Of a DNA stretch of 64,000 bases, positions 1 to 43,569 are shown piece by piece; the first letter of the stretch is position 1; every line of letters starts with the position of its first letter. Source of the stretch: an uncultured archaeon (GTDB lineage Archaea; Asgardarchaeota; Lokiarchaeia; Sigyniarchaeales; SOKP01); assembly GCA_964409945.1 (NCBI GenBank), contig CAYPFJ010000007.1, positions 18,635-82,634 of the forward strand, given 5' to 3'. The notes under the pieces were generated by a model, which was given only the letters and a program-made list of their open reading frames with translations, did no database searches and had not been told where the DNA came from. Made by a program: the position numbers and the translations under genes.

Positions 1-28
1 AAACTGAATATAAAAACAAAAAATAAAA

Positions 29-943
29 ATGAAACAAGTGATAAAAAAGCAAATGAATTCTAATCCTGAAAAAGAAAAAATTGATGATAGCAAAGTAGAT
101 TATACAATCGATTTTGTAACTACAAGTGCAATAAGTAAAATTGGTTATAAATTTCTTGTTTTATATCTCCCAATTCTATGGCTTTCTGGATATATGACTG
201 TTGCTGTATTTTTTGATGTATCAAGTTATATTCCGTGGTATATAAATATGTTTTTAATCCCTGTGTGGTTATTTGTATTATATTTTATTTTCGTATTTGG
301 AATCGCAATTTTTACAAAAGCGTTTATTCTTATAATAAATATGCTTCATAAGCCAAAAGAGGGAGTCTTCAGAGCCGAAGAAGGGGATCGAGACTATGAG
401 TTTTGGAGATTAAGAGTAGAGTTGAAGAAGATAGTTTTTTGGTTTATGAATAATGGCCCTTTAACATGGATAGTAATGTGGGGCTTCAGATGGATGGGTA
501 TTAAGGTAGACTTTTCAAGCCATGCTCAAGATTCTTGGGTGGATGAAAGATTTATTGAATTCGGGAGAAATGTTACTGTGGGCCAAGGAGCTGTTGTAAT
601 GAGCTCTCAGATCGTCGGAAGATATTTGATAATCAAAAAGATTTTTCTTGGAGATCACACGGTTGTAGGTGGACTATCACTTATATCTCCCGGCACAATT
701 ATGGGTAAGGAATCTGTGATTGGAGCATTTTCTGCGACAATTCCAAACCAAAAAATAGAAACTGGTTGGATTTACTTAGGCCCACATTTTGCTAGGAAAT
801 TAAAACCAAATAAATATGCAGAACAAAGACGAGATGTTATATACGAAGTCCGTGTAGATGATGAAATAAAATATGAAGTTAAACAAGAAGTCAATATAGA
901 TGAAGATAAGAAAAAGCTCTTAAACAATAATATAGAGGATTAA
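29..943 (+). CDS. Integral membrane protein with C-terminal left-handed beta-helix (hexapeptide-repeat) domain; 'type A' module of a TM+LbH paralog family (Pls/PosA C-terminal-domain-like)
   Basis: Hydrophobic segments (YKFLVLYLPILWLSGYMTVAVFF; FLIPVWLFVLYFIFVFGIAIF), then INMLHKPKEGVF..DYEFW and hexapeptide-like GQGAVVMSSQIVG / LGDHTVVGGLSLISPGTIMGKESVIGAFS. Collinear with the C-terminal halves of 9250..11079 and 11632..13512, including the tail EVNIDEDKK. Stop overlaps the next start (TAATG, 941-945). Confidence 0.6.
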   Translation: MKQVIKKQMNSNPEKEKIDDSKVDYTIDFVTTSAISKIGYKFLVLYLPILWLSGYMTVAVFFDVSSYIPWYINMFLIPVWLFVLYFIFVFGIAIFTKAFILIINMLHKPKEGVFRAEEGDRDYEFWRLRVELKKIVFWFMNNGPLTWIVMWGFRWMGIKVDFSSHAQDSWVDERFIEFGRNVTVGQGAVVMSSQIVGRYLIIKKIFLGDHTVVGGLSLISPGTIMGKESVIGAFSATIPNQKIETGWIYLGPHFARKLKPNKYAEQRRDVIYEVRVDDEIKYEVKQEVNIDEDKKKLLNNNIED

Positions 944-1818
944 TGAATATGTCAGTACCTTCGAGTTTAAAAGTAGGACCAAATACAACTCTTATCTTAG
1001 CCAAGAAAAGATATTTAATCTTTTATATCTTTTTAATTTGGATTAGTATTTTTACAATACAGTTTGAATTTTGGTTGTATTGGAATTGGCTGTACGGTCC
1101 TACACTTACTGAACCGAAAGTATTCATTCATTTCTTACTTTTGTTACCTTTTTTAGTTTTTGTTATGTATCTAACCTCAATTTTAGTATCATTATTCTTT
1201 GCCAAAGTGATTCTAGTAATCATTAATCTTATTCATAAACCACGAGAAGGAGTGTTCTTAAGACATCACTCAGATAAAGATTATAGATATTGGAGTCTTA
1301 GAAGTACTATAAAAAAATGGCCATTATGGCTATCACACAAGTTTCCTTTTCCTTTTATGAATAATATATGTTCCAAAATGTTTGGTATAAAAACTAACTA
1401 CTCCAACTCTTTATTTGAAGGATGGGTTGATACAGAATTCATTGAATTTGGAAAAAATATTGTAGTTGGACAGGGGGCTATAGTCCAGTCATCCGTTATT
1501 TTTGGAAATTTATTTATCATAAGAAAAACCATCATTGAAGATAATGTTATGATTGGTACCCAAAGTGTTGTTATGCCTGGAACGTATATGAAAAAAAATT
1601 GTATTTTAGGGGGTCATTCAATGACCACCGTAGGTCAAGAATTAGAAGAGAATTGGATTTATTTAGGGGCTCCAGCAAAAAAGTTTAAAAAAAATGTATT
1701 CTATGAAGATGGATTGGAAGAGATTATTAAAAATCAAGGAATAGGTGAAATTAAAACAGAAGCAAGATTTGAAGGATTATATACTGTGCGTAAGGATAAA
1801 GAGATTAATAGTGATTAA
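943..1818 (+). CDS. Integral membrane protein with C-terminal LbH domain; 'type B' module, paralog of 13509..14459
   Basis: INLIHKPREGVFLRHHSDKDYRYWSLRSTIKKWPLWL..FEGWVDTEFIEFGKNIVVGQGAIVQSSVIFGNLFIIRKTII aligns nearly residue for residue with the 316-aa ORF at 13509. There are two long hydrophobic segments N-terminally. Confidence 0.6.
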   Translation: MNMSVPSSLKVGPNTTLILAKKRYLIFYIFLIWISIFTIQFEFWLYWNWLYGPTLTEPKVFIHFLLLLPFLVFVMYLTSILVSLFFAKVILVIINLIHKPREGVFLRHHSDKDYRYWSLRSTIKKWPLWLSHKFPFPFMNNICSKMFGIKTNYSNSLFEGWVDTEFIEFGKNIVVGQGAIVQSSVIFGNLFIIRKTIIEDNVMIGTQSVVMPGTYMKKNCILGGHSMTTVGQELEENWIYLGAPAKKFKKNVFYEDGLEEIIKNQGIGEIKTEARFEGLYTVRKDKEINSD

Positions 1819-1820
1819 AA

Positions 1821-2621
1821 ATGAAAATTGGATATATCCAAACATCTCCACTATTTGGAGATAAAAAATATAATTTTGAAGAAATTGAAAAACTGATATC
1901 TGGCATAAAAGCAGATTTAATTGTATTACCAGAATTGTTTGCGACAGGTTATACTTTTGTTTCTAAAAAAGAAGCAGTATCATTAGCAGAAAGTCAAGAG
2001 GGTGAAACTGCTCAATTTCTCATAAATATTGCTCAATCGACTGGAGCAATAGTTATTGGCGGATTTATCGAAAAAGAAGGAGAAAAAATATACAATGCTG
2101 CAATAATAGTCTCAAATAAAGGAGTAATCGGCTCATATCGGAAAATACATCTATATTATAAGGAAAAACTTTGGTTTTCTCCAGGAAACAGACCCCTAAA
2201 AGTATATGGTATAGATGGAGTTAAATTAGGTATTATGATTTGTTTTGATTGGATTTTCCCAGAAACAGCGCGGATCCTTGCCCTTTTAAACGCGGATATT
2301 ATTGCTCATCCAGCAAATTTAGTACTTCCCTATTGCCAAAAGGCGATGATTACGAGATGTTTAGAAAATCGGGTATTTGCAATAACTTCAAATAGAATTG
2401 GTGAAGAAAAACGAGGAGATGATCATTTTAAATTTACTGGCAAAAGTCAAATAACTTCTTATAATGGTGAAATTTTATCATCTGCACCTGAGGATAAAAA
2501 TTATGTTGATATAATTGATATTGATATTCAAAAAGCTAGAAATAAAAAACTAAATGAGTTCAATAATTTATTTGAAAACCGACGTGTAGAATTTTATGAT
2601 ACTATTGTAAAAATAAAATAA
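1821..2621 (+). CDS. Carbon-nitrogen hydrolase (nitrilase superfamily)
   Basis: Glu-Lys-Cys triad context is present: LIVLPELFATGY, YRKIHLY, GIMICFDWIFPE. Length is 266 aa. Start lies 2 nt after the stop of 943..1818. Confidence 0.8.
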   Translation: MKIGYIQTSPLFGDKKYNFEEIEKLISGIKADLIVLPELFATGYTFVSKKEAVSLAESQEGETAQFLINIAQSTGAIVIGGFIEKEGEKIYNAAIIVSNKGVIGSYRKIHLYYKEKLWFSPGNRPLKVYGIDGVKLGIMICFDWIFPETARILALLNADIIAHPANLVLPYCQKAMITRCLENRVFAITSNRIGEEKRGDDHFKFTGKSQITSYNGEILSSAPEDKNYVDIIDIDIQKARNKKLNEFNNLFENRRVEFYDTIVKIK

Positions 2622-4674: not shown

Positions 4675-5514
4675 ATGAACTCTATAGAAAAATCAGAAGA
4701 AGGTTGGTTAATACCAAAATCTCCAATTGCATTTGAGTACCTAAAAAGATTCAATCGAAATATGGGTATTTTACATTTAGTACAAGGATTGCTAATGGTT
4801 TTATTTGGATTTTTACCTCAACTTGCTTTTTCCAGAGACATTTACACATTTTACCTAAAGTTTGAACTTGTTGGGCCAGATTTTGTTATTTCACCTAATC
4901 CTGCAGTACTTTTCGTCTTTAGCGCTTTAGGTGCATTTGTTGGATCCTTTTTATTGATGTCTGCTATTGCCCATCTATTAATTGCTTACCCACTTAATAA
5001 AAGTTACGTCAAGAATTTAAAAAGAGGAATAAATAAGGTACGTTGGTTTGAGTACGCTTTTTCAAGTTCAGTGATGATTTTCTTAATCGCTATTTTCTTT
5101 GGAGTGTGGGATTTCTGGTCATTGTTTATGATTTTTGTCTTAAATGCTCTGATGAATATGTTTGGTTTAATGATGGAATCATACAATGTATATACGAGAG
5201 AAAAAAATGAGAAGGTTAAATGGGGTCCATTTTATCTAGGTGTTATTGCCGGAGCCGTTCCTTGGATTGTTATTACTGCGTACTTTATAAGTACTGAAAC
5301 GATTGGAGGAGAAGTACCACTATTTGTCTACCTAATATACGGAATTGAATTGTTCTTCTTTAATACATTCGCTATCAACATGATATTGCAATATAAAGGA
5401 GTAGGAAAGTGGAAAGATTATCTATACGGTGAAAAAGTGTATCAACTTTTGAGTCTTGTATCTAAAACATTTCTAGCATGGTTAGTATTTGCAGGAGTAT
5501 TTAGTCCAGCTTAA
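4675..5514 (+). CDS. Heliorhodopsin
   Basis: Blocks are collinear with heliorhodopsin 48C12 as I recall it: LKRFNRNMGILHLVQ (LQNFNRIAGVFHLLQ), RWFEYAFSSSVMIFLIA (RWVEYSLSSSVMIVLIA, counterion Glu), GAVPWIV, LQYKGVGKWKDYLYGEKVYQLLSLVSKTFLAW (LQYKGKGKWSNYLRGERAYIVLSLVAKSALAW, retinal Lys). 279 aa with a 7-TM-like profile. Confidence 0.85.
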   Translation: MNSIEKSEEGWLIPKSPIAFEYLKRFNRNMGILHLVQGLLMVLFGFLPQLAFSRDIYTFYLKFELVGPDFVISPNPAVLFVFSALGAFVGSFLLMSAIAHLLIAYPLNKSYVKNLKRGINKVRWFEYAFSSSVMIFLIAIFFGVWDFWSLFMIFVLNALMNMFGLMMESYNVYTREKNEKVKWGPFYLGVIAGAVPWIVITAYFISTETIGGEVPLFVYLIYGIELFFFNTFAINMILQYKGVGKWKDYLYGEKVYQLLSLVSKTFLAWLVFAGVFSPA

Positions 5515-5558: not shown

Positions 5559-7199
5559 TTATGCTTCTACTATATACAACGGCCATTTTTTTAAAATTCC
5601 TTTAGGATTTTTACCATTTCGAACTTTTTCTAAGATTTCTGAACGCGTTGCTAAAAAATCTACTGGATTCTCATTTATTAATTCGATTTTAATTTCATTA
5701 TTTAAGAGAGCTTCTTTAAAGTTATCATTTGCACTGCAATCAAGTAATATTTTACTATAATTCTTCAAATTATAACAGTTTTTCTTACCATTTGAATAAA
5801 GAAACAACGTCCATGGTTTATCTGAAATCGAATTTTTTCTAACTAATAAAAGTGAATCAAGATCTAAACCACATTTCTCTTTTAAACAATTTAATAGAAG
5901 TCGTGGACTTTGAACTTCAAAATTAGAATAAGTAAAATAATCACCAGCAAATACCTTATAATGCGATTGTATAACGATTTCTTTTGATATATTTATTGGA
6001 TATTTTAATAGAAAACTTGAACGTAAAATTTTTCCATCTATTTGAGGGAGACCTTCCTGATTTTTAATAGAGATAACATCACCCAAATCAATATTAATTA
6101 AAACTCCTGAGTTATTAAGCCGAGAAACATAAAGCTTACCACATTTATTTTTAGTTCTTGAAACTGCTTCTTTCTTTCCTTTATGTTCTATTACGGGAAG
6201 AGTTAATGGAAAAATATACATTTTATTTAAACGTGAAATTTCATAATCTCCCTTATTTATACTTGCAGCAAACGGACCAATTTCAGAAGCTACATAAAGG
6301 TTTGTAAATTTTTCTTTCCCCACCTCCCATTTCATAAAATTACGAATTAATTCCCAATCTGATTTTGATAATGAACTTATACTAAAAACCAAAGTTGCTT
6401 TAGAAATTTTATTAGATAATTCTTTTTGAATTTCTTTTGAAGCATTAACTAACCCATTATTTTCAATTTTTAATAGAAGGTCTTCAAATTTTGGATTTTG
6501 GTTTTTGTGTATTAATTCAAGTGATCTTTTTATCCCCTCTTGGAGTCTAATAATATCTGCCCATCCCAAAATTGTTATCGCTGGTGCAGAAATGACTGAG
6601 ATATTATCCATCGTTAAGATTTTAGATATAATCTCTAGATTTCTTGAATTTTTATATTCATAAAACAGATATGATTTTGGTTTAATAACGGATAACATGA
6701 TTCGTTGAGAAAATTCTGAAGAGTAAAGTGAAATATATTTCTTATCTCCATATGATCTAATCCCATCGAATTTTAACCTAGAAGGAACAAAAATTATAGC
6801 AGATGAATTTGAATCTAATCCACTCGATTCAAAGATTGCTTGCATGCCAGGAGCCCATTGCCTCTTTACAATATCGTTTGCCATATGGAACCATTTTAAC
6901 ATCGACAATCTGCTATTTGTAGTCCCCGAAGTATGGCAAAAAATTAATGGATCAGATACATTATCGTTATTTAGATAATCATCTAAATCAATTGAGAAAG
7001 TTCTTGAATCAGTTGTTTCAGATTTTATTCTAATAAAAAGATCTTCAACAGACAATAACCCCGAAAGTTTTAATGATAATTCTTCATATTCCTTTTTAGA
7101 ACTTATTTTAAGCCAATGTTTCCAATTTATTCTTTCTATATTTGAAAAAGATTTATTGACGTATTTTTGGACTTTAATATCAAAATCAAATGACTCCAA
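5559..7199 (-). CDS. Hypothetical protein with ANL/GH3/LuxE-like TSGTT motif; possible divergent adenylate-forming enzyme
   Basis: 546 aa. LIFCHTSGTTNSRLSMLKW resembles the A3 P-loop (T/S-S-G-T-T). YVASEIGPFA, DLGDVIS and a C-terminal KGILKKWP are loosely A5/A8/A10-like. No confident family assignment. Confidence 0.35.
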   Translation of the reverse strand: MESFDFDIKVQKYVNKSFSNIERINWKHWLKISSKKEYEELSLKLSGLLSVEDLFIRIKSETTDSRTFSIDLDDYLNNDNVSDPLIFCHTSGTTNSRLSMLKWFHMANDIVKRQWAPGMQAIFESSGLDSNSSAIIFVPSRLKFDGIRSYGDKKYISLYSSEFSQRIMLSVIKPKSYLFYEYKNSRNLEIISKILTMDNISVISAPAITILGWADIIRLQEGIKRSLELIHKNQNPKFEDLLLKIENNGLVNASKEIQKELSNKISKATLVFSISSLSKSDWELIRNFMKWEVGKEKFTNLYVASEIGPFAASINKGDYEISRLNKMYIFPLTLPVIEHKGKKEAVSRTKNKCGKLYVSRLNNSGVLINIDLGDVISIKNQEGLPQIDGKILRSSFLLKYPINISKEIVIQSHYKVFAGDYFTYSNFEVQSPRLLLNCLKEKCGLDLDSLLLVRKNSISDKPWTLFLYSNGKKNCYNLKNYSKILLDCSANDNFKEALLNNEIKIELINENPVDFLATRSEILEKVRNGKNPKGILKKWPLYIVEA

Positions 7200-7330: not shown

Positions 7331-7885
7331 TTAAATATATGCTAAAATACCATATAACCCTGTTTCAGAATCTTGGAATATAGGCAAATGTGGAGGCAAA
7401 TAGGTAAAGATTATTAAAGAGAATCCCAAACTAATAAGAATTATCCATGAAGTAATAGTCAACCATCGTGGTAGTTCTTTTAAAGTCATAATCTTATAAC
7501 TTACAAATTGACCTATAATCACACCAATAAAGAAACTCATAATGTCAATAATAAGAAGTTCTGTTCCAAGAATAGCTGTATATGAATAAAAAACAATTAG
7601 AATCGTACCAATACTTATTATTGCCGCAAAACTTTTTCCAATAATAATATTTTTTGCGTTTTCTTTTATAAATTTATATTCGATTAATGAAAATATTATA
7701 AGCGGCCAATAGGGGAGTTTCAGATGTTCCCACACACTTTCATTAACTGCTGTAATTGCTCCAATAGGCGGCCAAGAAAAAAGCCATTCAAATAAGAAGT
7801 GGAATAAAGTTCCAACGATAATGATAAATATCATACCGAAAATTTCCCATCGTAATAATTTGTTCTTCATTTTTTCACCTTTCAC
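7331..7885 (-). CDS. Uncharacterised multi-pass membrane protein (VNESxWEHxKL motif)
   Basis: 184 aa with about 5 hydrophobic helices. Alternative start MKNKLL at 7870. Confidence 0.55.
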   Translation of the reverse strand: MKGEKMKNKLLRWEIFGMIFIIIVGTLFHFLFEWLFSWPPIGAITAVNESVWEHLKLPYWPLIIFSLIEYKFIKENAKNIIIGKSFAAIISIGTILIVFYSYTAILGTELLIIDIMSFFIGVIIGQFVSYKIMTLKELPRWLTITSWIILISLGFSLIIFTYLPPHLPIFQDSETGLYGILAYI

Positions 7886-9249: not shown

Positions 9250-11079
9250 ATGGATACTACAGAATTACCATCGATTGAAAGTGTTTCAGAGAATAAAACC
9301 ATTAAAGAAGAAATTAAAAATCAATATTTTTGGTATCTTTTTGTCCTTTTCACAATATTTTTGGCTTCATTAGTTATTCCCGCAATTGTGTTTCTAATGT
9401 ATGTATTTTTCTTTTTTTTACCTAATTTTTTAGATACTACTAGTTTTTTAGCCCTTTTTACAGAATTTAAACCTATGATAGCATTGATCTCTATGCCTTT
9501 AGTCCTCATTGGTTGTTATCTTATTCGACTATTCTTTATAGGTTTAATTACACGTGGTTTTTGGTATCTAACTGAAAAAAGATCCCCTAGTAAAGATGGT
9601 ATTATACCAAGAAATTTTCCTAGTAAAACATTAAATTATTATCAAATTAGAGGTTTCATGATTAAATATGGAAAGAATGCCTTTATGAAAGGTTCTTTTC
9701 CTTGGCTTAGCAACTGGTATTTTAATTTTATAGGCGCAAGCAAAATTGGAAAGGGTACTACCTTAGAGGAATCTGTCAGTAGTGACAAATTTATTGAAGT
9801 AGGGCGAAATTGTTATATAGGAGTTAACTCTGCGTTAGCTAGCCATGTTATTGAGGGAATTTTTGGAAATATCTCCTATTTTAAAGTAAAAACAGGAAAT
9901 AATTTTACCGCAGCAGCTAGTAATATTTTAGGACCCGGTTCTGAAGCGTATGATAATTCTTATTTACTTCCTTTAGCCTCAACTACCAAACATAGCGTAA
10001 TTAAAGGAAATAATTATTACTGGGGCATGCCATTAAGAAAAATTTTCAGAAAGAAGATTATGAAATTTTTAAGAATATCGCCAAAGGATTTAGAGAAAGG
10101 TGAAAATATTGGAGGTTATAAAGATAAGAAATTGTTTAAAAAATTGAGAGCTCAGAAACGTTCGAAGCAAACTGAAGCTGAACCCAAGATAGTATTAGAT
10201 AACGGAGACTTAAAGAAGGAAAATATTAATCTAAATGATATTGATAAAAAAGAATTAAGAATTGATTTTACCACTAGTAGTGCGATTTCAAGGATAAATA
10301 TAAAATTTTTAGTAGTTTATATCCCAATTTTTTGGTTGTCTGGCATGACAGATACCGTGATCTTTTACTCTTTCACTCATTACGTGCAAAATTGGGTATT
10401 AATGGCATTTTTTTTACCAGCAATATTAATTATTATGTGGTTTATATTTATTTTAGGATGTTTTTTCTTTAGCAAACTCTTCTTGATACTAATTAATTTA
10501 ATACATAAGCCAAAAGAAGGGATATTCAAAGCTGAAAAAGGAGATGCTGATTTTGAATTTTGGTGTTTACGAACTGAATTAAAAAAAGTAGCTTTTTGGT
10601 TTATTAGAAATTGGCCCCTTCCTTGGATGGATATTTTGGCTTTTAAATGGTTCGGCACCAAAATGAGTTTATCAAGCACGTTATGGGACTCATGGTGCGA
10701 TGGAGAATTTATTAAATTTGGACGTAGGGTAATAATAGGGCAAGGTGCTACTGTTATGTCCTCTATGGTCGTCGGAAAATATTTATTAATTAAAAAAGTC
10801 ATTCTAGATGATTATGTTGTTATTGGAGGTCAGAGCATTGTAGCTCCAGGAACGATCGTTGGTAAGGATTCAGTAGTCGGTGCTCTTAGTACAACTAACT
10901 ATGATCAGATCCTTGAGCCGGGATGGATTTATTTTGGAATTCCTGTCATTCAATTAAAGAAAAATAAATATTCCGAAGAACGTCGAGATATACTTATGAA
11001 ACGGGATGTTGATGAAGAAAAGAAGTATGAAATTAAACATGAAGTCAATATTGATGAAGATAAAAAAGAATTTGCATAA
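9250..11079 (+). CDS. Double-module membrane protein: two tandem (2 hydrophobic segments + LbH) units, types N+A; paralog of 11632..13512
   Basis: N unit: SPSKDGIIPRNFPSKTLNYYQIRGFMIKYGKN..WYFNFIGASKIGKGTTLEESV..IGVNSALASHVIEG. A unit: INLIHKPKEGIFKAE..FEFW..GQGATVMSSMVVG..VIGGQSIVAPGTIVGKDSVVGALS, with tail EVNIDEDKK. 609 aa. Confidence 0.6.
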   Translation: MDTTELPSIESVSENKTIKEEIKNQYFWYLFVLFTIFLASLVIPAIVFLMYVFFFFLPNFLDTTSFLALFTEFKPMIALISMPLVLIGCYLIRLFFIGLITRGFWYLTEKRSPSKDGIIPRNFPSKTLNYYQIRGFMIKYGKNAFMKGSFPWLSNWYFNFIGASKIGKGTTLEESVSSDKFIEVGRNCYIGVNSALASHVIEGIFGNISYFKVKTGNNFTAAASNILGPGSEAYDNSYLLPLASTTKHSVIKGNNYYWGMPLRKIFRKKIMKFLRISPKDLEKGENIGGYKDKKLFKKLRAQKRSKQTEAEPKIVLDNGDLKKENINLNDIDKKELRIDFTTSSAISRINIKFLVVYIPIFWLSGMTDTVIFYSFTHYVQNWVLMAFFLPAILIIMWFIFILGCFFFSKLFLILINLIHKPKEGIFKAEKGDADFEFWCLRTELKKVAFWFIRNWPLPWMDILAFKWFGTKMSLSSTLWDSWCDGEFIKFGRRVIIGQGATVMSSMVVGKYLLIKKVILDDYVVIGGQSIVAPGTIVGKDSVVGALSTTNYDQILEPGWIYFGIPVIQLKKNKYSEERRDILMKRDVDEEKKYEIKHEVNIDEDKKEFA

Positions 11080-11094
11080 AAAGACATAAATATT

Positions 11095-11520
11095 TTAAAT
11101 TTTATTTATTTTTAATTGCTCTTTTAAAAATCTCTTTAAACTACCACACATCTCTTTCAAAACCTGTTTATCTTGATAGAATAGATTAGTTCTAGGGCAA
11201 TCCTTATCAAATATACACTTTTTCCTGTGAAAATCGAATACTAAAGGGTAAAATCTGCAACCTTGAGGACGAAACTCATAAATAGTACAAATTTTTAAAA
11301 GCTTGTCAAAAAAGACACAATATCCTTCAACATTTTTTAGTTGAAAAAGATCATCCTTGTTTTTAACAATAAATTCTCGCTTTCTTTTATGATTTTGGCA
11401 TTTTCTCATTATCAAATCAATATCTTGTTCGGAAACAATCATCTCTGTCTCTATACAACACTTTCCACAATTTTCGCAATCATTGGACATGGTTGTTTTT
11501 TCTTTTTGCCTAAGACTCAT
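11095..11520 (-). CDS. YkgJ-family cysteine-cluster protein (CxxCxxCC zinc/iron-chelating domain)
   Basis: CENCGKCC near the N-terminus and GYCVFFD..CTIYEFRPQGCRFYP, the typical second half of the PF03692-type domain. Confidence 0.7.
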   Translation of the reverse strand: MSLRQKEKTTMSNDCENCGKCCIETEMIVSEQDIDLIMRKCQNHKRKREFIVKNKDDLFQLKNVEGYCVFFDKLLKICTIYEFRPQGCRFYPLVFDFHRKKCIFDKDCPRTNLFYQDKQVLKEMCGSLKRFLKEQLKINKI

Positions 11521-11631: not shown

Positions 11632-13512
11632 ATGAGTGAAGAAGGAAAAGAATCTGAGCTTTCTGATTCCGATGATTCTAATAACAAAGTTATAAAAGAA
11701 GAAATCAGTCTTCAATTTCATTTATATATTATTATTTTTGCTATTATTTATTATATTTCATGGATTATACCGGGATTTGTATTTTGGTTATATTTTTTCT
11801 TCCCTTTTCGAATATTCTTTTTAGAAAATCTCGATTTTTTATCTCTTTTTACTAATTTAAGTTCTCTAATAACGTTGTTAATTATGCCTTTAGTTATTAT
11901 TGGCTGTTATTTAATCCATTTAATGCTGATTGGATTAACAACACGATTTATTTGGGGAATTACTGAAAAAATTTCACCATCAAAATCAGGTATCATTCCA
12001 AGAAATATTAGAAGTAGGGTAGCGAATTATTACCATATTAGAAGTTTTATGATAAAATACGGAAAAAATACATTTATAAAAGGTATGTTTCCATGGTTAT
12101 CTAATTGGTTTTTTAATTTTGTTGGGTCAAACAAAATTGGTAAAGGAACAACCTTGGAGGAGTCTGTAGGGAATGATAAATTTATTAACATCGGGGAGAA
12201 CTGTTATATTGGTGTTAATTCTACATTAGCGAGTCATCTAATTCAAGGAATCTTCGGAAATATCTCATATTTCGAAATTGTAGTTGGTAATAATGTAACC
12301 TCTTCTGCTTTTGGTAATATTGGTGCAGGAAGTGAAATTTATGAAGATGCATATCTATTACCTCTAGCATCTACACCAAAACATAGTATACTAAAAGGTA
12401 ATAACTCATATTATTTTGGAATTCCAATGAGGAAAATCTTTAGAAAGAAACTAATGAATTATCTAAATGTAACACCAAAAGATTTGGAGATGAATGAGAA
12501 TATTGAAGGGTACTCAGATAAAAAATTATTAAAAGAAATAAAAGAGAAGAAGAGTTATCATGAAAAAGATGATGAAAATATTGATAAAGAGCAGATTCTG
12601 GGTGATCTACAAGAAGTTAAAATAGCATTGGATAAATTAACCGCAGAAGATTTAGCGATTGATTTCACAACAAGCTCTGCAATAAGTAGGGTAAATGTAA
12701 AGTTTTTAATTGTATATATACCAATTTTTTGGCTTTCGGGCTTAATCGTAACTATAATTTGGTACTGGTATTCTAAATCTCAAGTTTCATCGAACTTCCA
12801 ATGGTCATTTTTCTTTTTCTTCCCAATTGTTTTGTTCGGATTATTATATATCTTTAATGCGGGATGTCTTCTTTTTAGTAAGCTGTTTTTAATTTTAATA
12901 AATTTAATTCATAAACCTAAAGAGGGCGTGTTTAAAGCAGAGATTGGAGATACTAATTACGAATTTTGGATGATGAGAACTGAACTAAAGAAAATTGCTT
13001 TATGGTTATTTCGAAATTCACCATTTCCGTGGACCGATGCTTTAGCTTTTAAACAGTTAGGGATTAATATGGATTTTTCAAGCCATTTAGCTGATACTTG
13101 GTGTGATTCTGAATTTATTAAATTTGGGCGTAAAGTATTGGTTGGTCAGGGAGCTACAATTATGTCCAGTATGGTAATAGGTAAATATTTACTAATTAAA
13201 AAAGTATTTTTTGATGACTATGTAATGGTTGGAGGTCATACGACGATTGCTCCGGGAACGATAATAGAGAAAGAATCGGTTATCGGTGCGATAAGTTCAA
13301 CAACCTATGATCAAGTTCTAAAACCTGGTTGGATTTATTTTGGGATACCTGCGAGGGAATTAAAAGAAAATAAATATGCTGAAGAGAGAACAGATATAAT
13401 AATTAAACGCCAAGTAGCTGAAGCCAAAAAATTTGAAACGACACTTGAAGTTAATATTGATGAAGATAAGAAAGAATTAATTAAAATAAAAAAAAAGAGG
13501 AAAGAAAAATGA
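11632..13512 (+). CDS. Double-module membrane protein (types N+A), paralog of 9250..11079
   Basis: 626 aa with the same block order as 9250..11079: GIIPRNIRSRVANYYHIRSFMIKYGKN..FNFVGSNKIGKGTTLEESVG; INLIHKPKEGVFKAE..YEFW..GQGATIMSSMVIG; EVNIDEDKK. ATGA overlap with the next gene. Confidence 0.6.
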   Translation: MSEEGKESELSDSDDSNNKVIKEEISLQFHLYIIIFAIIYYISWIIPGFVFWLYFFFPFRIFFLENLDFLSLFTNLSSLITLLIMPLVIIGCYLIHLMLIGLTTRFIWGITEKISPSKSGIIPRNIRSRVANYYHIRSFMIKYGKNTFIKGMFPWLSNWFFNFVGSNKIGKGTTLEESVGNDKFINIGENCYIGVNSTLASHLIQGIFGNISYFEIVVGNNVTSSAFGNIGAGSEIYEDAYLLPLASTPKHSILKGNNSYYFGIPMRKIFRKKLMNYLNVTPKDLEMNENIEGYSDKKLLKEIKEKKSYHEKDDENIDKEQILGDLQEVKIALDKLTAEDLAIDFTTSSAISRVNVKFLIVYIPIFWLSGLIVTIIWYWYSKSQVSSNFQWSFFFFFPIVLFGLLYIFNAGCLLFSKLFLILINLIHKPKEGVFKAEIGDTNYEFWMMRTELKKIALWLFRNSPFPWTDALAFKQLGINMDFSSHLADTWCDSEFIKFGRKVLVGQGATIMSSMVIGKYLLIKKVFFDDYVMVGGHTTIAPGTIIEKESVIGAISSTTYDQVLKPGWIYFGIPARELKENKYAEERTDIIIKRQVAEAKKFETTLEVNIDEDKKELIKIKKKRKEK

Positions 13513-14459
13513 GTGTACCAAATACAATGCGTGTTGGTCCTTTCACCTCAAATGTGCTCGTGCGGAAACGTTATTTATTTTTTTACATCTTGCTTATTTG
13601 GGCAAGTGTAATTCCAATCCTCTTAGAATTTTGGGTTTATTGGCGTTTTTTATGGCACCCGATAAGACCAGTTCATTTCTATACATTTCTTCCACTTTTA
13701 GCTTTCTTAATGTATATTACTTTAGTTTTTTCTTCAATACTTTTTGCTAAGATCTTATTAATTATAATTAATGCATTCCATAAGCCTCGAGAAGGTGTTT
13801 TCTTACGAATTCCCGCAGATCGAGATTATCGAAATTGGAGTCTTCGGAATACTATCAAAAGGTGGCCAACTTGGCTTGCCCACAGATTTCCTTTCCCTGG
13901 CTTTTTAGATAATGTATGTTTTAAAATGTTTGGAGTGAAAACCAAAATTTCGAATTCCTTATTTGAGGGTTGGGTGGATACTGAGTTCATCGATTTTGGT
14001 AGAGATGTAGTTATTGGACAAGGAGCAATTGTTCAATCTGCTGTAATTATAGGGAATCTCTTAATAATTAGGAAAACAATTATCGGAAATGATGTTAGAA
14101 TAGGTTCACATGCCATAATTATGCCAGGTACCCATATCGAACATAATTGTATTTTAGCTGCTAATTCTGTAACTACGGTAGGACAGGTTTTAGAAAGTGG
14201 ATACGTTTATGCTGGTATTCCTGCAAAAAAGTTTAAAAGGAACTATTTTTTTGAGGATGGGTTGGAGGATAAGATAGGTCATGTTGAGGATGTTGAGGCG
14301 TTAAGAGAAAAATATGAACAGATTTATACTAAAAGATATGATAAATTGAAACTTAAAGAGCGTCGTGAGTTAAAGAGAGAAAAGAAAGAAGAGGAAAAGA
14401 AGAGATTTGACTATGCGGCTGATGAATGGGAAGAATTTGACGATGGTTTCAATATTTAA
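13509..14459 (+). CDS. Single-module membrane LbH protein, type B (paralog of 943..1818), with highly charged C-terminal tail
   Basis: INAFHKPREGVFLRIPADRDYRNWSLRNTIKRWPTWL..FEGWVDTEFIDFGRDVVIGQGAIVQSAVIIGNLLIIRKTII. 4-nt overlap with the upstream gene. Confidence 0.6.
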   Translation: MSVPNTMRVGPFTSNVLVRKRYLFFYILLIWASVIPILLEFWVYWRFLWHPIRPVHFYTFLPLLAFLMYITLVFSSILFAKILLIIINAFHKPREGVFLRIPADRDYRNWSLRNTIKRWPTWLAHRFPFPGFLDNVCFKMFGVKTKISNSLFEGWVDTEFIDFGRDVVIGQGAIVQSAVIIGNLLIIRKTIIGNDVRIGSHAIIMPGTHIEHNCILAANSVTTVGQVLESGYVYAGIPAKKFKRNYFFEDGLEDKIGHVEDVEALREKYEQIYTKRYDKLKLKERRELKREKKEEEKKRFDYAADEWEEFDDGFNI

Positions 14460-15752: not shown

Positions 15753-16790
15753 ATGAAGTTTGTTGAAGTAGCGGGTACTAAATTTGAAGTCAAAAATGGA
15801 TTTCTTGATTTAGTTCTTTTAGAAATAAAAGATATTAATGAAATACAAGGATTATCAAAACTAAAAGATTTAAAGAATTTAGAATTAAGCTCAAATGAAA
15901 TTGCGGTAATTAGAGGGTTAGATAACTTAACTGAGTTAGAAGTTTTAAATTTAGGGAATAATAAAATAGTTGAAATAAAAGGATTAGAGAATTTAGAAAA
16001 CCTCAAGATTCTACATCTTATAAGTAACCAGTTAACAGAGATAAAAGGTTTAGATAATTTAAGAAATTTAGAAGAATTATATTTAAGGGGAAATCAGATA
16101 ACAGAGTTAAAAGGTTTAGATAATTTAACCTCATTAAAAAGGCTTGATCTTTCTTGGAATCACATAACAGAAATCAAAGGTTTGGACGCTTTAACAAATC
16201 TTGAAGTAGTATGGATTGCGGGAAATAAAGTGGAAAAAATCAAAAATTTTGAAAAGTTAGAGAAACTGAAAGTATTAAATCTTGCTGGAAATCAGATTAA
16301 GAGTATTGAAGGGTTGGAGAACCTAAAGTGTCTCAAATCTCTTTATTTAAATAATAATTTAATTCAAGATATCCGTGGTCTAAATACTTTGGAAAACATG
16401 GAGACACTATGGCTTAACACTAACCAAATTTCAAAAATTGGAGGATTGGACAATTGTAAAGCTTTAAGAATTCTAAATTTAAAACAAAACAATATAACCC
16501 AGATAAAAGGATTATATTCTTTAAATGGATTAGAAAATCTCTTTCTTTCAGAGAATAATATTGGAGAAATTAAAGGTCTTGAAACGCTATCTAAGTTGGA
16601 AACTCTCGATTTAGGTCAAAATCGTATAATTCAGATTAAAGGATTAGAGGCTCTAATGAGTTTAAAGGATTTATGGTTAGCAGACAATCTAATTCCTCAG
16701 AAAATATTAGACCAATTAGGAGGATTAGATTCGGGGGGATGTGCAAACGATGCATTGAAATTTGTTCAGTATAGTCTTGTTAATTTATAA
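15753..16790 (+). CDS. Leucine-rich repeat protein, about 13 tandem 22-residue SDS22/internalin-type repeats, no signal peptide evident
   Basis: Repeats fit LxxLxxLxLxxNxIxxIxGLxx, e.g. LEVLNLGNNKIVEIKGLENLEN / LKILHLISNQLTEIKGLDNLRN / LEELYLRGNQITELKGLDNLTS. Confidence 0.85.
   Translation: MKFVEVAGTKFEVKNGFLDLVLLEIKDINEIQGLSKLKDLKNLELSSNEIAVIRGLDNLTELEVLNLGNNKIVEIKGLENLENLKILHLISNQLTEIKGLDNLRNLEELYLRGNQITELKGLDNLTSLKRLDLSWNHITEIKGLDALTNLEVVWIAGNKVEKIKNFEKLEKLKVLNLAGNQIKSIEGLENLKCLKSLYLNNNLIQDIRGLNTLENMETLWLNTNQISKIGGLDNCKALRILNLKQNNITQIKGLYSLNGLENLFLSENNIGEIKGLETLSKLETLDLGQNRIIQIKGLEALMSLKDLWLADNLIPQKILDQLGGLDSGGCANDALKFVQYSLVNL
15870..16730 (+). repeat. Diverged tandem 66-bp coding repeats (LRR units)
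   Basis: Periodic ..aaaggtttagataattta.. motifs recur every 66 nt inside the LRR gene. Confidence 0.7.
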
Positions 16791-40440: not shown

Positions 40441-41730
40441 TTGGCACAGAAAAATATCTTTGAATATGATGCTAAAAAACTATTAGCAAAAGCATTACCA
40501 AAATATTATCCAAACTTTAACTATCATAATAAATTGGCTGTTATTGAAAGTACTACAAATTTAGATAAGTTAGCAGATGAAAATCCTTGGATTAAATCTG
40601 AAAAAGTAGTAGTTAAACCTGATCAACTATTTGGAAAAAGAGGTAAAGCCAAACTTCTATTATTAGATGCTGATCTTAACCAAGTAAAAAAATTCTGTAA
40701 AGAGAATTTAAATAAAGAATTTCTAATCGGTAATGTCAAAGGGGAATTAAATCGATTGTTAATTGAACCTTTTATACCGCATGAAAAAGAATATTATGTA
40801 TCCATCACCTCAGAGAGAGATAATGATGTCATTCACTTTAGTTTTGAAGGAGGTATTTTTATCGAGGAAAATTGGGATAAGGTTACCCACATTAAAGTTC
40901 CAATTAATACAGATATAAATACTTTTGATTTAGGGAACAAATTACCTAATTTAGGCGATTTAAAGACATCTTTAATTCCATTTATAAAAGGATTATATCA
41001 AGTATATGTAGACCAGGATTTTACATTTCTTGAAATAAATCCATTTGCGATTACTAAAAATAAAAAGATTGTTCCTTTAGATGTAAAAGCTCGATTAGAT
41101 GATACTGCTGCGTTTTTGCATGCTGACACTTGGGGCAATCCGGAGCATCCTATTGAATTTCCAGCGGGATTTGGTCAGAAAATGAGTGCTGAAGAAATTA
41201 AAATTAAAGAACTTGATGAAAAAACAGGAGCTTCACTTAAATTGACTATCTTAAATCGAGAAGGTCGTGTCTGGACGATGGTAGCTGGGGGTGGAGCAAG
41301 TGTTATTTATACTGATACTATAGCAGATCTTGGTTTTTCAGAAGAATTGGGTAATTATGGAGAATATTCAGGTAATCCTTCCCAAGAACATACTGAAATT
41401 TATGCTCAAACTGTAATTGACATCATTACAGAAAAACCAGATCCTAAAGGGAGAGAAAAATATTTAATAATTGGAGGAGGAATTGCAAATTTTACTGACG
41501 TGAAGGCTACTTTTGGAGGCATTGTTAGTGTGATAAAGAATTCAGTTGATAAATTAAAGAGAGCAAATGTGAAAATCTTAGTTCGCAGAGGTGGTCCTAA
41601 TGAAAAACAAGGTTTAGAATTAATGAGAAAAGTTGGAGAAGAAACAGGGATTCCTATTGACATTTATGATCGATATAGTAGTATGACGCGTCCTGTATCT
41701 CGAATGATTGAAAAAATGAGAGGTGAATAA
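40441..41730 (+). CDS. aclB: ATP-citrate lyase, small (ATP-grasp/citrate-binding) subunit; TTG start
   Basis: NPWIKSEKVVVKPDQLFGKRGK closely parallels ACLY [22 protein letters not shown]. An in-frame TAG at 40432-40434 forces the TTG at 40441. The large subunit follows. Confidence 0.85.
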   Translation: MAQKNIFEYDAKKLLAKALPKYYPNFNYHNKLAVIESTTNLDKLADENPWIKSEKVVVKPDQLFGKRGKAKLLLLDADLNQVKKFCKENLNKEFLIGNVKGELNRLLIEPFIPHEKEYYVSITSERDNDVIHFSFEGGIFIEENWDKVTHIKVPINTDINTFDLGNKLPNLGDLKTSLIPFIKGLYQVYVDQDFTFLEINPFAITKNKKIVPLDVKARLDDTAAFLHADTWGNPEHPIEFPAGFGQKMSAEEIKIKELDEKTGASLKLTILNREGRVWTMVAGGGASVIYTDTIADLGFSEELGNYGEYSGNPSQEHTEIYAQTVIDIITEKPDPKGREKYLIIGGGIANFTDVKATFGGIVSVIKNSVDKLKRANVKILVRRGGPNEKQGLELMRKVGEETGIPIDIYDRYSSMTRPVSRMIEKMRGE

Positions 41731-41733
41731 TAA

Positions 41734-43569
41734 TTGGAAAGTTATGAGTTATTTAATGAAGATACCCAATCCATAATATATGGCCTTCAAGCTGCGCCCG
41801 TTCAAAGAATGCTTGATTTTGATTATGTTTGTAGACGAAAAAAACCCTCTGTTGCAGCAATGATTCAGCCCACTCAAGAAGCAGCAGTAGCGTATCATAA
41901 AGCTTTTTGGGGAAGCAAAGAAGTTGTTATACCCGTTTATAAAACACTTGAAATGGCAGTTAAAAAGCATCCTAATGCTGATGTCATGATAAACTTTGCA
42001 TCTTTTCGATCTGCTTATGATACAAGTAAAGAAGCACTTGAAGCAGGTAATATTCGAGTAGTGGTTATTATCGCGGAAGGCATGCCAGAAAGACAAAGTA
42101 GACTTTTAATTAAAATCGCTAATGAAAAAAATAAAATCATCATAGGTCCCGCAACAGTAGGCGGTATAAAGGCTGGGGCATTTAAGATCGCTAATACAGC
42201 GGGAACACTTGAAAATATCATTCTTTCAAAGTTATATCGCCCTGGTTCAGTAGGTTTTGTTTCTAAGTCTGGTGGTCTGAGTAATGAAATGAATTTTATG
42301 ATCGCTCAAAATACGGATGGAGTTTATGAATCCATAGCAATTGGAGGAGATCGTTATCCTGGTTCGAGATTAATTGATCATCTTTTTCGTTATGAAATAA
42401 ATCCAAATATCAAAATGTTAGTTTGTCTTGGAGAGATTGGTGGAACTGAGGAATATGAGATCGTAGATGCTTTAAAGAATAAAAAGATTACTAAACCACT
42501 CGTTATATGGGTAACTGGTACAGCAGCTAAAATTTTACCTCAAGGTTTACAATTTGGACATGCTGGTGCTATGGCAGGTACTTCAAAAGAGACTGCTGAT
42601 GCTAAAAATCAAGCCTTAAAGGAAGCTGGAGCACTTGTCCCGGAATCTTATGAAGATTTTGATAAATTGATCAAAAAAATTTATGAAAAGCTAGTAAAAG
42701 AAGGAAAACTTAAACCTGCCAAAGATATTGAGCCTCCTAAGATTCCTACTGATTTTAATGAGGCAATAAGATTAGGAATAGTTAGAAGACCCTCTGATGT
42801 TGTAGTAACTATCAGTGATGATCGAGGAGATGTTCCTACATTCGCAGGGGTTGGATTGGAGGATATAATTAGAGGTAATCGATCAATTGGGTATGTTATT
42901 GGCCTCTTATGGTTTAAGCGAGAGTTGCCGGAGTTTGCTCAACAATTTATTGAAATGGTAATTAAATTAACAGCAGATCATGGTCCTGCAGTATCAGGAG
43001 CACATAACGCTATAATTACTGCTCGTGCGGGGAAAGACCTTATGTCAGCTTTAGCAAGTGGGATTTTAACAATTGGTCCTAGATTTGGGGGCGCAATATC
43101 AGATGCAGCAAAATATGTGAGGGAAGCCTTACAAAATGGAATGAAACCAGCAGAGTTTATAAAATATATGAAAGATGTTATTAAAATTAATATTCCAGGA
43201 ATAGGACATCGAATTAAATCCGTTCAAAATCCAGATGTAAGAGTTGTCTTACTTAAGGAATTTGTATTTAAAAATTTTCAAAAGCATCCACACTTAGATT
43301 TTGCTCTAGAGGTAGAAAAACTAACAACTGCTAAAAGGAATAATCTTATATTGAATGTTGATGGTTGTATAGGGATTACATTTTTAGACTTATTAGAAAA
43401 TTTAGATTTTACACCTGAAGAAATTGAAGATGTGATATATAGCGAAGCATTAAATGGTCTATTCGTCCTTGGACGTTCAATTGGGATGATGGGACACGTA
43501 TTTGATCAGAAGCGACAACGGGCTGGACTTTATAGACAGCCGTGGGATGAAATTTTGTTTTCAGAATAG
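41734..43569 (+). CDS. aclA: ATP-citrate lyase, large subunit (CoA-binding, phospho-His, citryl-CoA lyase domain); TTG start
   Basis: RMLDFDYVC, catalytic His loop LQFGHAGAMAG, citrate-synthase-like C-terminus (ADHGPAVSGAHN, GHRIKS). TAA at 41731-33 immediately precedes the TTG. Confidence 0.85.
   Translation: MESYELFNEDTQSIIYGLQAAPVQRMLDFDYVCRRKKPSVAAMIQPTQEAAVAYHKAFWGSKEVVIPVYKTLEMAVKKHPNADVMINFASFRSAYDTSKEALEAGNIRVVVIIAEGMPERQSRLLIKIANEKNKIIIGPATVGGIKAGAFKIANTAGTLENIILSKLYRPGSVGFVSKSGGLSNEMNFMIAQNTDGVYESIAIGGDRYPGSRLIDHLFRYEINPNIKMLVCLGEIGGTEEYEIVDALKNKKITKPLVIWVTGTAAKILPQGLQFGHAGAMAGTSKETADAKNQALKEAGALVPESYEDFDKLIKKIYEKLVKEGKLKPAKDIEPPKIPTDFNEAIRLGIVRRPSDVVVTISDDRGDVPTFAGVGLEDIIRGNRSIGYVIGLLWFKRELPEFAQQFIEMVIKLTADHGPAVSGAHNAIITARAGKDLMSALASGILTIGPRFGGAISDAAKYVREALQNGMKPAEFIKYMKDVIKINIPGIGHRIKSVQNPDVRVVLLKEFVFKNFQKHPHLDFALEVEKLTTAKRNNLILNVDGCIGITFLDLLENLDFTPEEIEDVIYSEALNGLFVLGRSIGMMGHVFDQKRQRAGLYRQPWDEILFSE

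Follow-up and report, generated by a model that had tools for sequence, protein, structure and literature searches.

A split three-module membrane β-helix gene set in an Asgard archaeon, probably a distant relative of the Pls/PosA C-terminal polymerisation domain

The window analysed here, a stretch of 64,000 nucleotides from contig CAYPFJ010000007.1 of an uncultured archaeon, carries on its forward strand a gene pair (11632–14459) encoding three related membrane modules, termed N, A and B. N and A are joined in one polypeptide of 626 aa, and B is encoded by the following gene, whose start overlaps the N-A stop in the tetranucleotide ATGA (13509–13512), with a GAGG-like motif just 5' of the overlap. 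An earlier note on this DNA had described both reading frames and the overlap; these are real, and every peptide string that it quoted is found in the translations. The pair is organised as follows.

11632..13512, + strand: fused N-A gene (open reading frame, 626 aa), two TM-hairpin and β-helix modules with a charged linker between them
11710..11952, + strand: TM hairpin of the N module, residues 27–107 (hydrophobicity; AF2 helices 29–64 and 76–114)
11953..12126, + strand: N juxtamembrane strand and two helices (conservation 0.86; AF2 strand 120–123, helices 129–149 and 154–164)
12127..12441, + strand: β-helix of the N module, with the candidate catalytic His202 (alignment to LacA His115)
12442..12687, + strand: N-A linker, charged, poorly conserved (conservation 0.59) and modelled at low confidence (pLDDT <50 over much of residues 277–354)
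12688..12909, + strand: TM hairpin of the A module, residues 353–426 (hydrophobicity; AF2)
12910..13116, + strand: A juxtamembrane segment (conservation 0.82; invariant columns of alignment A1)
13117..13371, + strand: β-helix of the A module (Pfam Hexapep, residues 526–552)
13509..14459, + strand: B module gene (open reading frame, 316 aa; Hexapep E 5.6e-11)
13572..13778, + strand: TM hairpin of the B module
13767..13802, + strand: segment containing the HKPREG motif of the B module
13980..14243, + strand: β-helix of the B module

Each module follows the same plan. Kyte-Doolittle profiles place two long hydrophobic segments in every module (residues 27–57, 69–107, 354–379 and 389–428 of the 626-aa protein; 20–45 and 55–91 of the 316-aa protein), and AF2 models these as paired helices of 30–40 residues that lead into a short strand, two further helices and a β-helix (626-aa protein: mean pLDDT 74.9, pTM 0.71). 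Lysine and arginine are enriched before TM1 and after TM2 in protein order, which would fit β-helices on the cytoplasmic side. The Pfam Hexapep model (PF00132), which recognises the B unit as listed above, also detects the A unit of a 609-aa paralog (E 6.5e-7) and that of the 626-aa protein (E 2.5e-5; 24.2 bits, slightly below the 27-bit cutoff). The layout of two hydrophobic segments plus β-helix that the earlier note had read is confirmed. Within the 626-aa protein, the best-conserved stretch is the N juxtamembrane segment, which contains the motif EKISPSKSGIIPRN at 11965–12006, and the A module carries the invariant pattern I-N-x-x-H-K-P-x-E-G-x-F at 12898–12933 (alignment A1). Sequence comparison places A and B at 37–40% identity (E about 1e-50) and N at 20–23% identity to either (E 1e-8 to 1e-12), with hhalign E-values of 6e-28 for N-A, 2e-35 for N-B and 3e-81 for A-B. 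By these comparisons, the three modules are homologous beyond chance, yet distinct.

Further members of the family lie in the same window, including the paralogs of 609, 304 and 291 aa that had been named before, together with two neighbouring genes.

1..1818, + strand: second, unfused set (tail of an N gene, 1–28; A gene, 29–943, 304 aa; B gene, 943–1818, 291 aa)
1821..2621, + strand: carbon-nitrogen hydrolase gene, nitrilase-superfamily and amidase-like (PF00795, E 6.6e-45)
9250..11079, + strand: paralogous N-A gene, 609 aa, without a B gene of its own (61–62% identity to the 626-aa protein; His199 at 9844–9846)
11095..11520, − strand: CxxCxxCC gene (PF03692, E 1.9e-12), divergently transcribed

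The window begins within the tail of a stand-alone N gene (311 aa in L008). The CN-hydrolase gene starts 3 nt past the B gene of the unfused set and scores 297 bits against NF040852, whose cutoff is 500. An 88-aa open reading frame behind it was considered as a carrier protein and rejected, as it is an internally deleted UvdE remnant.

Conservation of the set was assessed in the 80 best-matching species-representative loci, all from Asgard MAGs, which hold 82 complete N/A/B sets; the archaeal host proposed earlier is confirmed as Asgard (Promethearchaeota). N, A and B are jointly present in all 80 loci in the order N-A-B, co-directional in every set, and arranged as three genes, as N-A plus B, or as a fused B-N-A. 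The modules are also found naturally fused, in orders that are cyclic permutations of one another: N-A, B-N and, in P0121 and P0123, B-N-A. The set junctions are translationally coupled, and A is followed by B in 82/82 sets, most commonly across a 4-nt overlap (31 cases). This constant co-occurrence, together with the fusions, indirectly supports a 1:1:1 pseudo-trimer. Moreover, the AF2 models reach pTM values of 0.71 (N-A) and 0.60 (B-N-A fusion), which would be hard to attain with independently placed modules. A strict 1:1:1 model leaves the lone N-A paralog and the local shortage of B unexplained, because the organism of the window has three N, three A and only two B in this region; the lone N-A arrangement is itself conserved (42 cases). 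A MAFFT alignment that combined B-N-A, B-N, B and N-A proteins (A2, 1481 columns) was discarded because B units had been drawn onto A units, and its replacement, A3, omits the B-only sequences.

The steadiest neighbour of the Asgard sets is the CxxCxxCC gene, found within 500 nt upstream of 55/82 sets, and a CN-hydrolase gene lies directly 3' of 12/27 unfused sets versus 0/55 fused ones. These neighbours, like the Zn-ADH genes also found there, name no substrate, and an acyl-CoA ligase adjoins only 4/82 sets. Existing annotation labels the family only as "hypothetical" or as generic acyltransferase, and nothing specific on acyltransferases or lipids of Asgard archaea emerged from the literature searched. 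Several paralogs occur per genome, and homologs of the 626-aa protein in Asgard MAGs share 60–93% identity.

The soluble part of each module is a left-handed β-helix of hexapeptide repeats, as seen by PF00132, AF2 and Foldseek. Foldseek assigns a probability of 1.00 to the MAT/GAT fold, and the top PDB matches are acetyl-CoA-dependent maltose and galactoside O-acetyltransferases, aligned over the full length (185/185 columns) with TM-scores of 0.55–0.60 on the target; the AntD N-acyltransferase is also among the best matches. Enzymes of the MAT, LacA/GAT and NodL type are the best structural match across the whole soluble domain. In the MAT/GAT family the donor is acyl-CoA, bound at the subunit interface, and the same would be expected here. 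While these enzymes form soluble homotrimers whose three active sites are identical, in the Asgard proteins a TM hairpin and then a conserved juxtamembrane motif come before each β-helix, the subunits differ, and two of them lack the histidine.

This histidine is distributed in a characteristic way. At the column of LacA His115, histidine is present in 44/46 N units, 0/45 A units and 0/17 B units. Specifically, His202 of the N module (codon 12235–12237, motif LASHLIQGIFGN) is the sole candidate catalytic histidine of the gene pair and, with His199 of the 609-aa paralog, corresponds to the MAT/GAT general base, for which A and B have serine. All 45 A units carry Ser at the column, and a strictly conserved Ser-Ser pair stands there in A and B (in A of the 626-aa protein within IMSSMVIG, 13159–13182, at the position of the N module's Ser-His). 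The assignment of His202 as a candidate catalytic base rests on alignments; the LacA sequence used in one of them was checked for its length of 203 aa and its histidine at 115. The strict conservation of the Ser-Ser pair suggests that the A and B sites may not be inert. The same column holds histidine in 1/14 C1, 0/6 C2 and 13/14 C3 modules of Pls; in a direct Pls C3-LacA alignment, the C3 histidine is displaced by a few residues and lies in a loop that contains gaps. Bacterial stand-alone three-module proteins have it in 1/11 first, 11/11 second and 1/11 third modules, and single-module relatives in 22/29. One His-bearing module is therefore kept in three independent lineages, which suggests selection for catalysis.

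Pls (ε-poly-L-lysine synthetase) and PosA (δ-poly-L-ornithine synthetase) make cationic homo-poly-amino acids. The architecture resembles that of the Pls/PosA C-terminal domain, which comprises three TM pairs and three β-helix domains, with the PosA β-helices modelled as a pseudo-trimer (PMC10522769). Across N-A plus B, six TM segments in three pairs, each followed by a β-helix of about 180 residues, reproduce the count and order described there, in agreement with the earlier note. Both systems have three non-identical modules, in each of which a TM pair is followed by a strand, two helices and a roughly five-turn β-helix; only one of the three bears the acetyltransferase-type histidine. The Asgard system differs in lacking adenylation and carrier domains, in spreading its modules over two or three polypeptides, and in placing the histidine in the first module (N) rather than the third. 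To our knowledge, the Pls/PosA polymerisation domain is the only characterised membrane-anchored β-helix acyltransferase module, and its mechanism is unsolved. No solved structure of this C-terminal domain was found by sequence, whether the query was the window protein or a more closely related bacterial one, or in the literature searched.

The sequence link to Pls that the note had proposed holds in part. TIGR02353, the Pls/PosA model, ranks first or second among the NCBIfam matches of A and B units, at E 8e-15 to 7e-6, and is the top match for the unfused A (304 aa, 7.3e-6) and B (291 aa, 2.1e-8). The best match in the window is the 609-aa protein (8.3e-15, residues 357–575 to profile 7–219), and in this protein and the 291-aa protein the aligned stretch extends from the TM hairpin through the whole β-helix. 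The scores are nevertheless only about 25–54 bits (609 aa, 54.2; 626 aa, 41.5; 316 aa, 36.6; 291 aa, 33.0; 304 aa, 24.6) against a curated cutoff of 423.1 bits, from which even summed scores stay far; since the model spans three modules, one- and two-module proteins cannot reach it. N units give no TIGR02353 match at E<=0.01. Instead, the top NCBIfam match of the N units and of the 626-aa protein is the YvoF model NF058585 (E 1.5e-13 to 3.6e-5), at 23–51 bits against a cutoff of 300; the YvoF matches as a whole, at 18–51 bits, cover only the β-helix and the preceding helices. YvoF, a MAT-like heptaprenylglyceryl phosphate O-acetyltransferase acting on an ether lipid, offers an analogy for a membrane-lipid acceptor; it is a small soluble protein without a TM hairpin or module differentiation.

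Profile comparison narrows the Pls similarity further. Asgard units match Pls modules by hhalign at a probability of 96.6–98.8%, no better than they match soluble LacA, and once the β-helix is deleted the probability drops to <4% (E 0.01–0.7), near the reversed controls. The hhalign signal is therefore generic β-helix similarity, and the 97–99% matches were dropped as strong evidence for Pls. Bacterial intermediates restore part of the connection: without the β-helix, Asgard B matches their modules M1 and M3 at E 2–5e-4, and M1 and M2 match Pls C2 at E 2e-4 to 5e-3. This juxtamembrane chain is in register; most reversed controls lie at E>=0.05, with a single outlier at 0.0047. The TM helices alone give no signal. 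What survives of the proposed likeness is thus a weak in-register juxtamembrane signal at E about 1e-4, which is weak sequence evidence for homology between the TM plus juxtamembrane part and its Pls counterpart. A one-to-one correspondence of N with C1, A with C2 and B with C3 was rejected by the hhalign comparison. The Asgard modules are far nearer to each other than to any Pls module, so that the triplication probably arose independently. The Asgard complex is probably a distant relative of the Pls/PosA C-terminal polymerisation domain.

The intermediates are bacterial stand-alone three-module proteins with TM segments and β-helices (Elusimicrobiota MBK8576353.1, here P0246; P0190, P0205 and P0263; and the SDR-fused P0212), which bridge the Asgard profile (E 2e-31 to 1e-17) and TIGR02353 (157–184 bits). 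Like the Asgard sets, they have three modules, one of them His-bearing, and no A or T domains. They differ in being single polypeptides of 650–690 aa, in carrying the histidine in module 2, in sharing only 22–29% identity with Asgard units, and in lying in operons with FadD-type ligase, SDR, GT1 and dTDP-sugar genes. An adenylate-forming ligase is fused via the T domain in Pls, is the next gene in Elusimicrobiota and overlaps the gene start in Thermoplasmata, a recurrence in keeping with a thioester donor. Taken over the relatives, the nearby genes encode fatty-acyl/aryl-CoA ligases, FadD, SDR, GT1, dTDP-sugar enzymes, a polyprenyl synthase and a geranylgeranyl-reductase family member. The ligase, SDR, GT1 and isoprenoid neighbours point to lipid-like acyl transfer and not to poly-amino-acid synthesis.

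The reading we favour, and consider reasonably probable, is that N-A and B together form one thioester-dependent membrane acyltransferase. Each of the three modules would supply a TM helical hairpin and a cytoplasmic MAT/GAT-like β-helix, and above a membrane base of six helices the three β-helices would assemble into a 1:1:1 pseudo-trimer. Since only N keeps the general-base His202, a single active site would be expected, located where N meets a neighbouring module, with A and B serving structural or substrate-binding roles. The acyl donor would be a thioester in the cytoplasm, most simply acyl-CoA, and the acyl group would pass to an acceptor hydroxyl or amino group, with the acceptor held at the membrane surface by the strongly conserved juxtamembrane motifs. 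This acceptor would probably be a lipid or another membrane-associated molecule. Such an assembly would have a Pls/PosA-like build and operate without fused adenylation and carrier domains.

An ordinary hexapeptide O-acetyltransferase with membrane anchors, transferring acetyl from acetyl-CoA onto a lipid-linked or nascent envelope glycan, would share the MAT/GAT-like fold and the candidate catalytic histidine, and is in keeping with weak matches to sugar acetyltransferases of the WcaF, WbbJ, HpsU and NeuD type and with the GT1 and dTDP-sugar genes adjoining the bacterial three-module relatives. However, no glycosyltransferase, flippase or sugar-nucleotide gene recurs beside the 82 Asgard sets, the sugar O-acetyltransferases known to have this fold are soluble and homotrimeric, and a simple anchor needs neither the differentiation into three modules nor the strong TM and juxtamembrane conservation, which makes this reading unlikely.

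About as unlikely is an NRPS-independent membrane polymerase, as the earlier note had suggested, in which aminoacyl or other bifunctional acyl units, supplied as a free thioester or by a ligase acting in trans, would be added repeatedly and the chain exported. The three-module architecture and one-His pattern of Pls/PosA and the rank of TIGR02353 among the matches of A and B fit this idea. Pls/PosA-family proteins without an A domain exist, such as P0323 (824 aa, T domain plus C-terminal domain, annotated as Pls/PosA family), which makes in-trans activation plausible for this family; additionally, the amidase-type CN-hydrolase behind 12/27 unfused sets could trim an amide product. Against this stands the local gene content. 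In the five proteins scanned, Pfam recognises no domain other than the Hexapep type, with no fused A or PP-binding domain; no AMP-binding or PP-binding domain was found in the neighbours or in the ten largest open reading frames of the window, which bears out the earlier observation that none is fused or adjacent; and neither the window nor the 80 related loci contain an A domain, a carrier protein or a ligase of the amino-acid type. The nearby ligases are long-chain fatty-acyl-CoA synthetases, similarity to Pls is weak beyond the generic β-helix, and the triplication is probably independent of that in Pls. Nothing found here supports polymerase activity. A broader version, in which N:A:B would be a carrier-independent processive amide or ester polymerase or a lipid acylase, a free-standing ancestral form of the Pls/PosA machine that is fed by CoA-thioesters and makes an envelope polymer or acylated lipid, is likewise a long shot.

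Highly improbable, finally, is a non-catalytic or metal-binding membrane β-helix assembly comparable to the heterotrimer of γ-carbonic-anhydrase-like (γ-CA-like) proteins that plants and protists carry on the membrane arm of their complex I. Such complex-I subunits do appear among the PDB sequence and fold matches (7ar9_z, E 2.8e-9 with the N profile), and two of the three modules lack the histidine. The reading was nevertheless rejected because the three-His zinc site is absent, the only conserved β-helix histidine being that of N. In addition, the acetyltransferase fold match is better and full-length, three independent lineages each keep one module with the histidine, and NCBIfam γ-CA models score 13–25 bits against a cutoff of 250.

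The Asgard sets thus define a highly conserved, multi-paralog family that is present in 80/80 best-matching loci, yet poorly annotated. Its separate, co-expressed modules would be an easier system than Pls/PosA for dissecting the role of each module, and the pattern of one histidine per three modules predicts that C3 bears the catalytic base in Pls. Experiments are possible, since a relative (UYP45917.1) occurs in the cultured Lokiarchaeum ossiferum. Should the favoured acyltransferase use a membrane lipid as its acceptor, it would be relevant to membrane modification in Asgard archaea; if the polymerase or lipid-acylase reading were true, the archaea most closely related to eukaryotes would make an envelope polymer or an acylated membrane lipid of a kind not described before.

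The N/A/B system is a real feature, for which functional annotation was found nowhere among the sources searched. The most fitting description is that of a split, heteromeric variant, free of adenylation (A) and carrier (T) domains, of a membrane β-helix acyltransferase module that is otherwise known only from the Pls/PosA poly-amino-acid synthetases. The window carries the following module genes:

29-943, unfused A gene (304 aa)
943-1818, unfused B gene (291 aa)
9250-11079, + strand, second N-A gene (609 aa)
11632-13512, fused N-A gene (626 aa)
13509-14459, B gene (316 aa)

The last two ORFs lie exactly where the earlier note placed them and share the ATGA overlap it described; all of the peptide strings it quoted are found in the translations, and hydrophobicity analysis recovers its two hydrophobic segments per unit as two long ones each. 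An identical metagenome contig shows that the unfused set also has an N partner, of 311 aa, whose last nucleotide is window position 28. In the AlphaFold2 (AF2) models, each unit consists, in order, of two helices (30-40 residues), a short strand, two further helices and the β-helix, with Hexapep repeats detected by Pfam in the A and B units. An N-x-x-H-K-P-x-E-G motif sits at the membrane interface. The distribution of charges is consistent with an N-in topology, which would expose the β-helices to the cytoplasm and its supply of CoA thioesters. Pairwise identity is 37-40% between A and B and 20-23% between N and each of these; with profile-profile E-values of 3e-81 (A-B), 6e-28 (N-A) and 2e-35 (N-B), the three unit types are, judged by sequence comparison, homologous yet clearly distinct.

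Across 80 species-representative Asgard loci, 82 complete N/A/B sets are found, 55 as N-A plus B and 27 as separate N, A and B genes. The sets are co-directional in every case, and B most commonly starts 4 nt ahead of the A stop. The cyclic order, B then N-A, occurs at 4 loci, and natural fusions comprise B-N as well as B-N-A as a single chain (P0121, 797 aa, and P0123). Because fusion of the same parts in permuted order is a classic sign of a physical complex, these arrangements argue that N, A and B associate physically. As far as is known, β-helix acyltransferases of solved structure are all trimers, and an N:A:B pseudo-trimer would draw two β-helices from N-A and the third from B. The AF2 pTM is 0.71 for the window N-A (626 aa) and 0.60 for the B-N-A fusion. 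The 609-aa paralog has no adjacent B gene, the local module count in this organism is three N, three A and only two B, and the 80 loci include 42 conserved instances of a "lone" N-A; B modules are in apparent short supply.

Foldseek searches with both AF2 models identify acetyl-CoA-dependent maltose/galactoside O-acetyltransferases as the closest structures, matched over the full length of the target, N-terminal helices included (185/185 columns, TM-score 0.55-0.60), followed by the N-acyltransferase AntD. LacA His115 is the general base of the former family. The histidine of the N-unit motif S-H-x-x-x-G-x-F (His202 in the 626-aa and His199 in the 609-aa protein) aligns with His115 of a LacA sequence whose length and His115 position were checked. 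The equivalent histidine is present in 44/46 N, 0/45 A and 0/17 B modules, A and B carrying a strictly conserved Ser-Ser at that site. In Pls/PosA it is found in 1/14 C1, 0/6 C2 and 13/14 C3 modules, and in bacterial stand-alone three-module proteins in 1/11, 11/11 and 1/11 of modules 1, 2 and 3, respectively. Among single-module relatives, 22/29 have it. On these alignments, each three-module system retains exactly one His-bearing module, which one differing by lineage, while presumed homotrimers have the histidine in all copies. The pattern is read as a single putative working active site in each pseudo-trimer.

In architecture, Asgard N/A/B agrees point by point with what has been published on the C-terminal domain of PosA/Pls (PMC10522769). 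The Pls-type likeness drawn in the earlier note holds for this architecture and for rank, TIGR02353 being the first or second NCBIfam match for every A and B unit and aligning from the TM hairpin through the β-helix end in the 609-aa and 291-aa proteins. It does not extend to formal TIGR02353 membership, with scores of 25-54 bits against a cutoff of 423 and with A and T domains absent; no A domain, carrier protein or amino-acid ligase is found among the neighbouring genes and the ten largest ORFs of the window, the note having said that no A or T domain is fused or adjacent. Module-wise hhalign against real Pls/PosA proteins gives 96.6-98.8% probability, soluble LacA as a control scoring about equal to the Pls modules. 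With the β-helix deleted, the direct Asgard-Pls comparison falls to background level. A weak in-register signal, at the TM2 end and the following P-x-E-G-x-[FY] motif, emerges via the bacterial stand-alone intermediates (TIGR02353 157-184 bits; Asgard profile E down to 2e-31): the comparisons give E 2-5e-4 for Asgard B versus bacterial modules 1/3 and E 2e-4 to 5e-3 for bacterial modules 1/2 versus Pls C2. Most reversed controls stay at E>=0.05, a single one reaching 0.0047. Common ancestry of the TM-hairpin plus β-helix module with the Pls module is considered likely. Triplication was probably independent in the two lineages, because the Asgard modules are much nearer to one another than to any Pls module. 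A Streptomyces mirabilis protein annotated as Pls/PosA family (P0323, 824 aa, gene start as called; cluster of 45 sequences) comprises only the carrier and three-module C-terminal domains, and its lack of an adenylation domain suggests that in bacterial members, too, the A domain can work in trans.

Homologs of the 626-aa protein number in the hundreds (60-93% identity), all from Asgard MAGs binned as Promethearchaeota/Lokiarchaeia or labelled Hod-, Hermod-, Odin- and Thorarchaeota, and are annotated as "hypothetical" or generic acyltransferase. When 1.84 billion representatives are searched exhaustively with a profile, 2853 relatives emerge at E<=1e-3. Among them are single-module proteins of ~230-300 aa (Helarchaeota, Lokiarchaeota, Thermoplasmata) and bacterial proteins that carry three modules on one chain of 650-690 aa (Elusimicrobiota and others); one such bacterial protein bears an N-terminal SDR domain. 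A Helarchaeota version with two overlapping single-module genes, 270 aa and 245 aa (L093 7211-8738, JBQSHX010000138.1), is intermediate between one- and three-module arrangements.

Other features of the window are as follows:

2639-2905, + strand, 88-aa ORF, internally deleted remnant of UV-damage endonuclease UvdE
4675-5514 (+), 5559-7199 (-) and 7331-7885 (-), heliorhodopsin trio
15753-16790, + strand, leucine-rich-repeat protein, 345 aa (LRR_4, E 5.5e-68)
40441-43569, + strand, ATP-citrate-lyase-like gene pair, citrate-binding/ATP-grasp followed by CoA-ligase/citrate-synthase domains

The 88-aa ORF was ruled out as a carrier protein: its residues 1-13 correspond to UvdE 1-13 and 13-81 to UvdE 230-298 (71% identity), ~216 residues being lost. 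The trio, comprising a heliorhodopsin gene (PF18761, E 3.7e-86), a 546-aa ORF without Pfam or NCBIfam matches and a DUF6512 gene, shows conserved synteny, and many Asgard MAGs again have it beside N/A/B. The 345-aa protein consists almost entirely of leucine-rich repeats, and its position downstream of the N/A/B locus is kept in many relatives. Genes for aconitase, fumarase and aldehyde:ferredoxin oxidoreductase are also present in the window, away from the ATP-citrate-lyase-like pair. Upstream of the window in the same organism, L008 2121-7714 holds an intein-bearing class II ribonucleotide reductase, a PIN/RHH toxin-antitoxin pair and an acyl-CoA synthetase gene in two ORFs (456 aa and 93 aa).

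The gene that most regularly accompanies the Asgard sets is a divergently oriented CxxCxxCC (PF03692) gene, <=500 nt upstream of 55/82 sets; a Zn-ADH is often upstream, and a nitrilase-superfamily CN-hydrolase directly follows 12/27 unfused sets. In a Thermoplasmata contig (L092 1824-9440, JAGGZU010000067.1), a single-module TM plus β-helix gene is the last of a co-directional cluster that may be an isoprenoid-modification pathway. Its other genes encode a polyprenyl synthase, methyltransferases, a member of the geranylgeranyl-reductase family and an acyl-CoA ligase of PaaK/FlxY type, the last of these annotated as two ORFs (220 and 212 aa). The earlier note's idea of a polymerase gains no supporting finding in this analysis and is judged unlikely. 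Adenylate-forming ligases turn up repeatedly in the family at large: in Pls, one is fused via the T domain; in Elusimicrobiota a FadD11-like ligase is the next gene, with SDR and GT1 also there; in the Thermoplasmata cluster the PaaK/FlxY-type ligase overlaps the start of the module gene; and at a few Asgard loci a bona fide long-chain acyl-CoA synthetase adjoins (709 bits, cutoff 625). These recurrent ligase contexts point to acyl transfer supplied by thioesters, in pathways of lipid or glycolipid type, not to poly-amino-acid synthesis.
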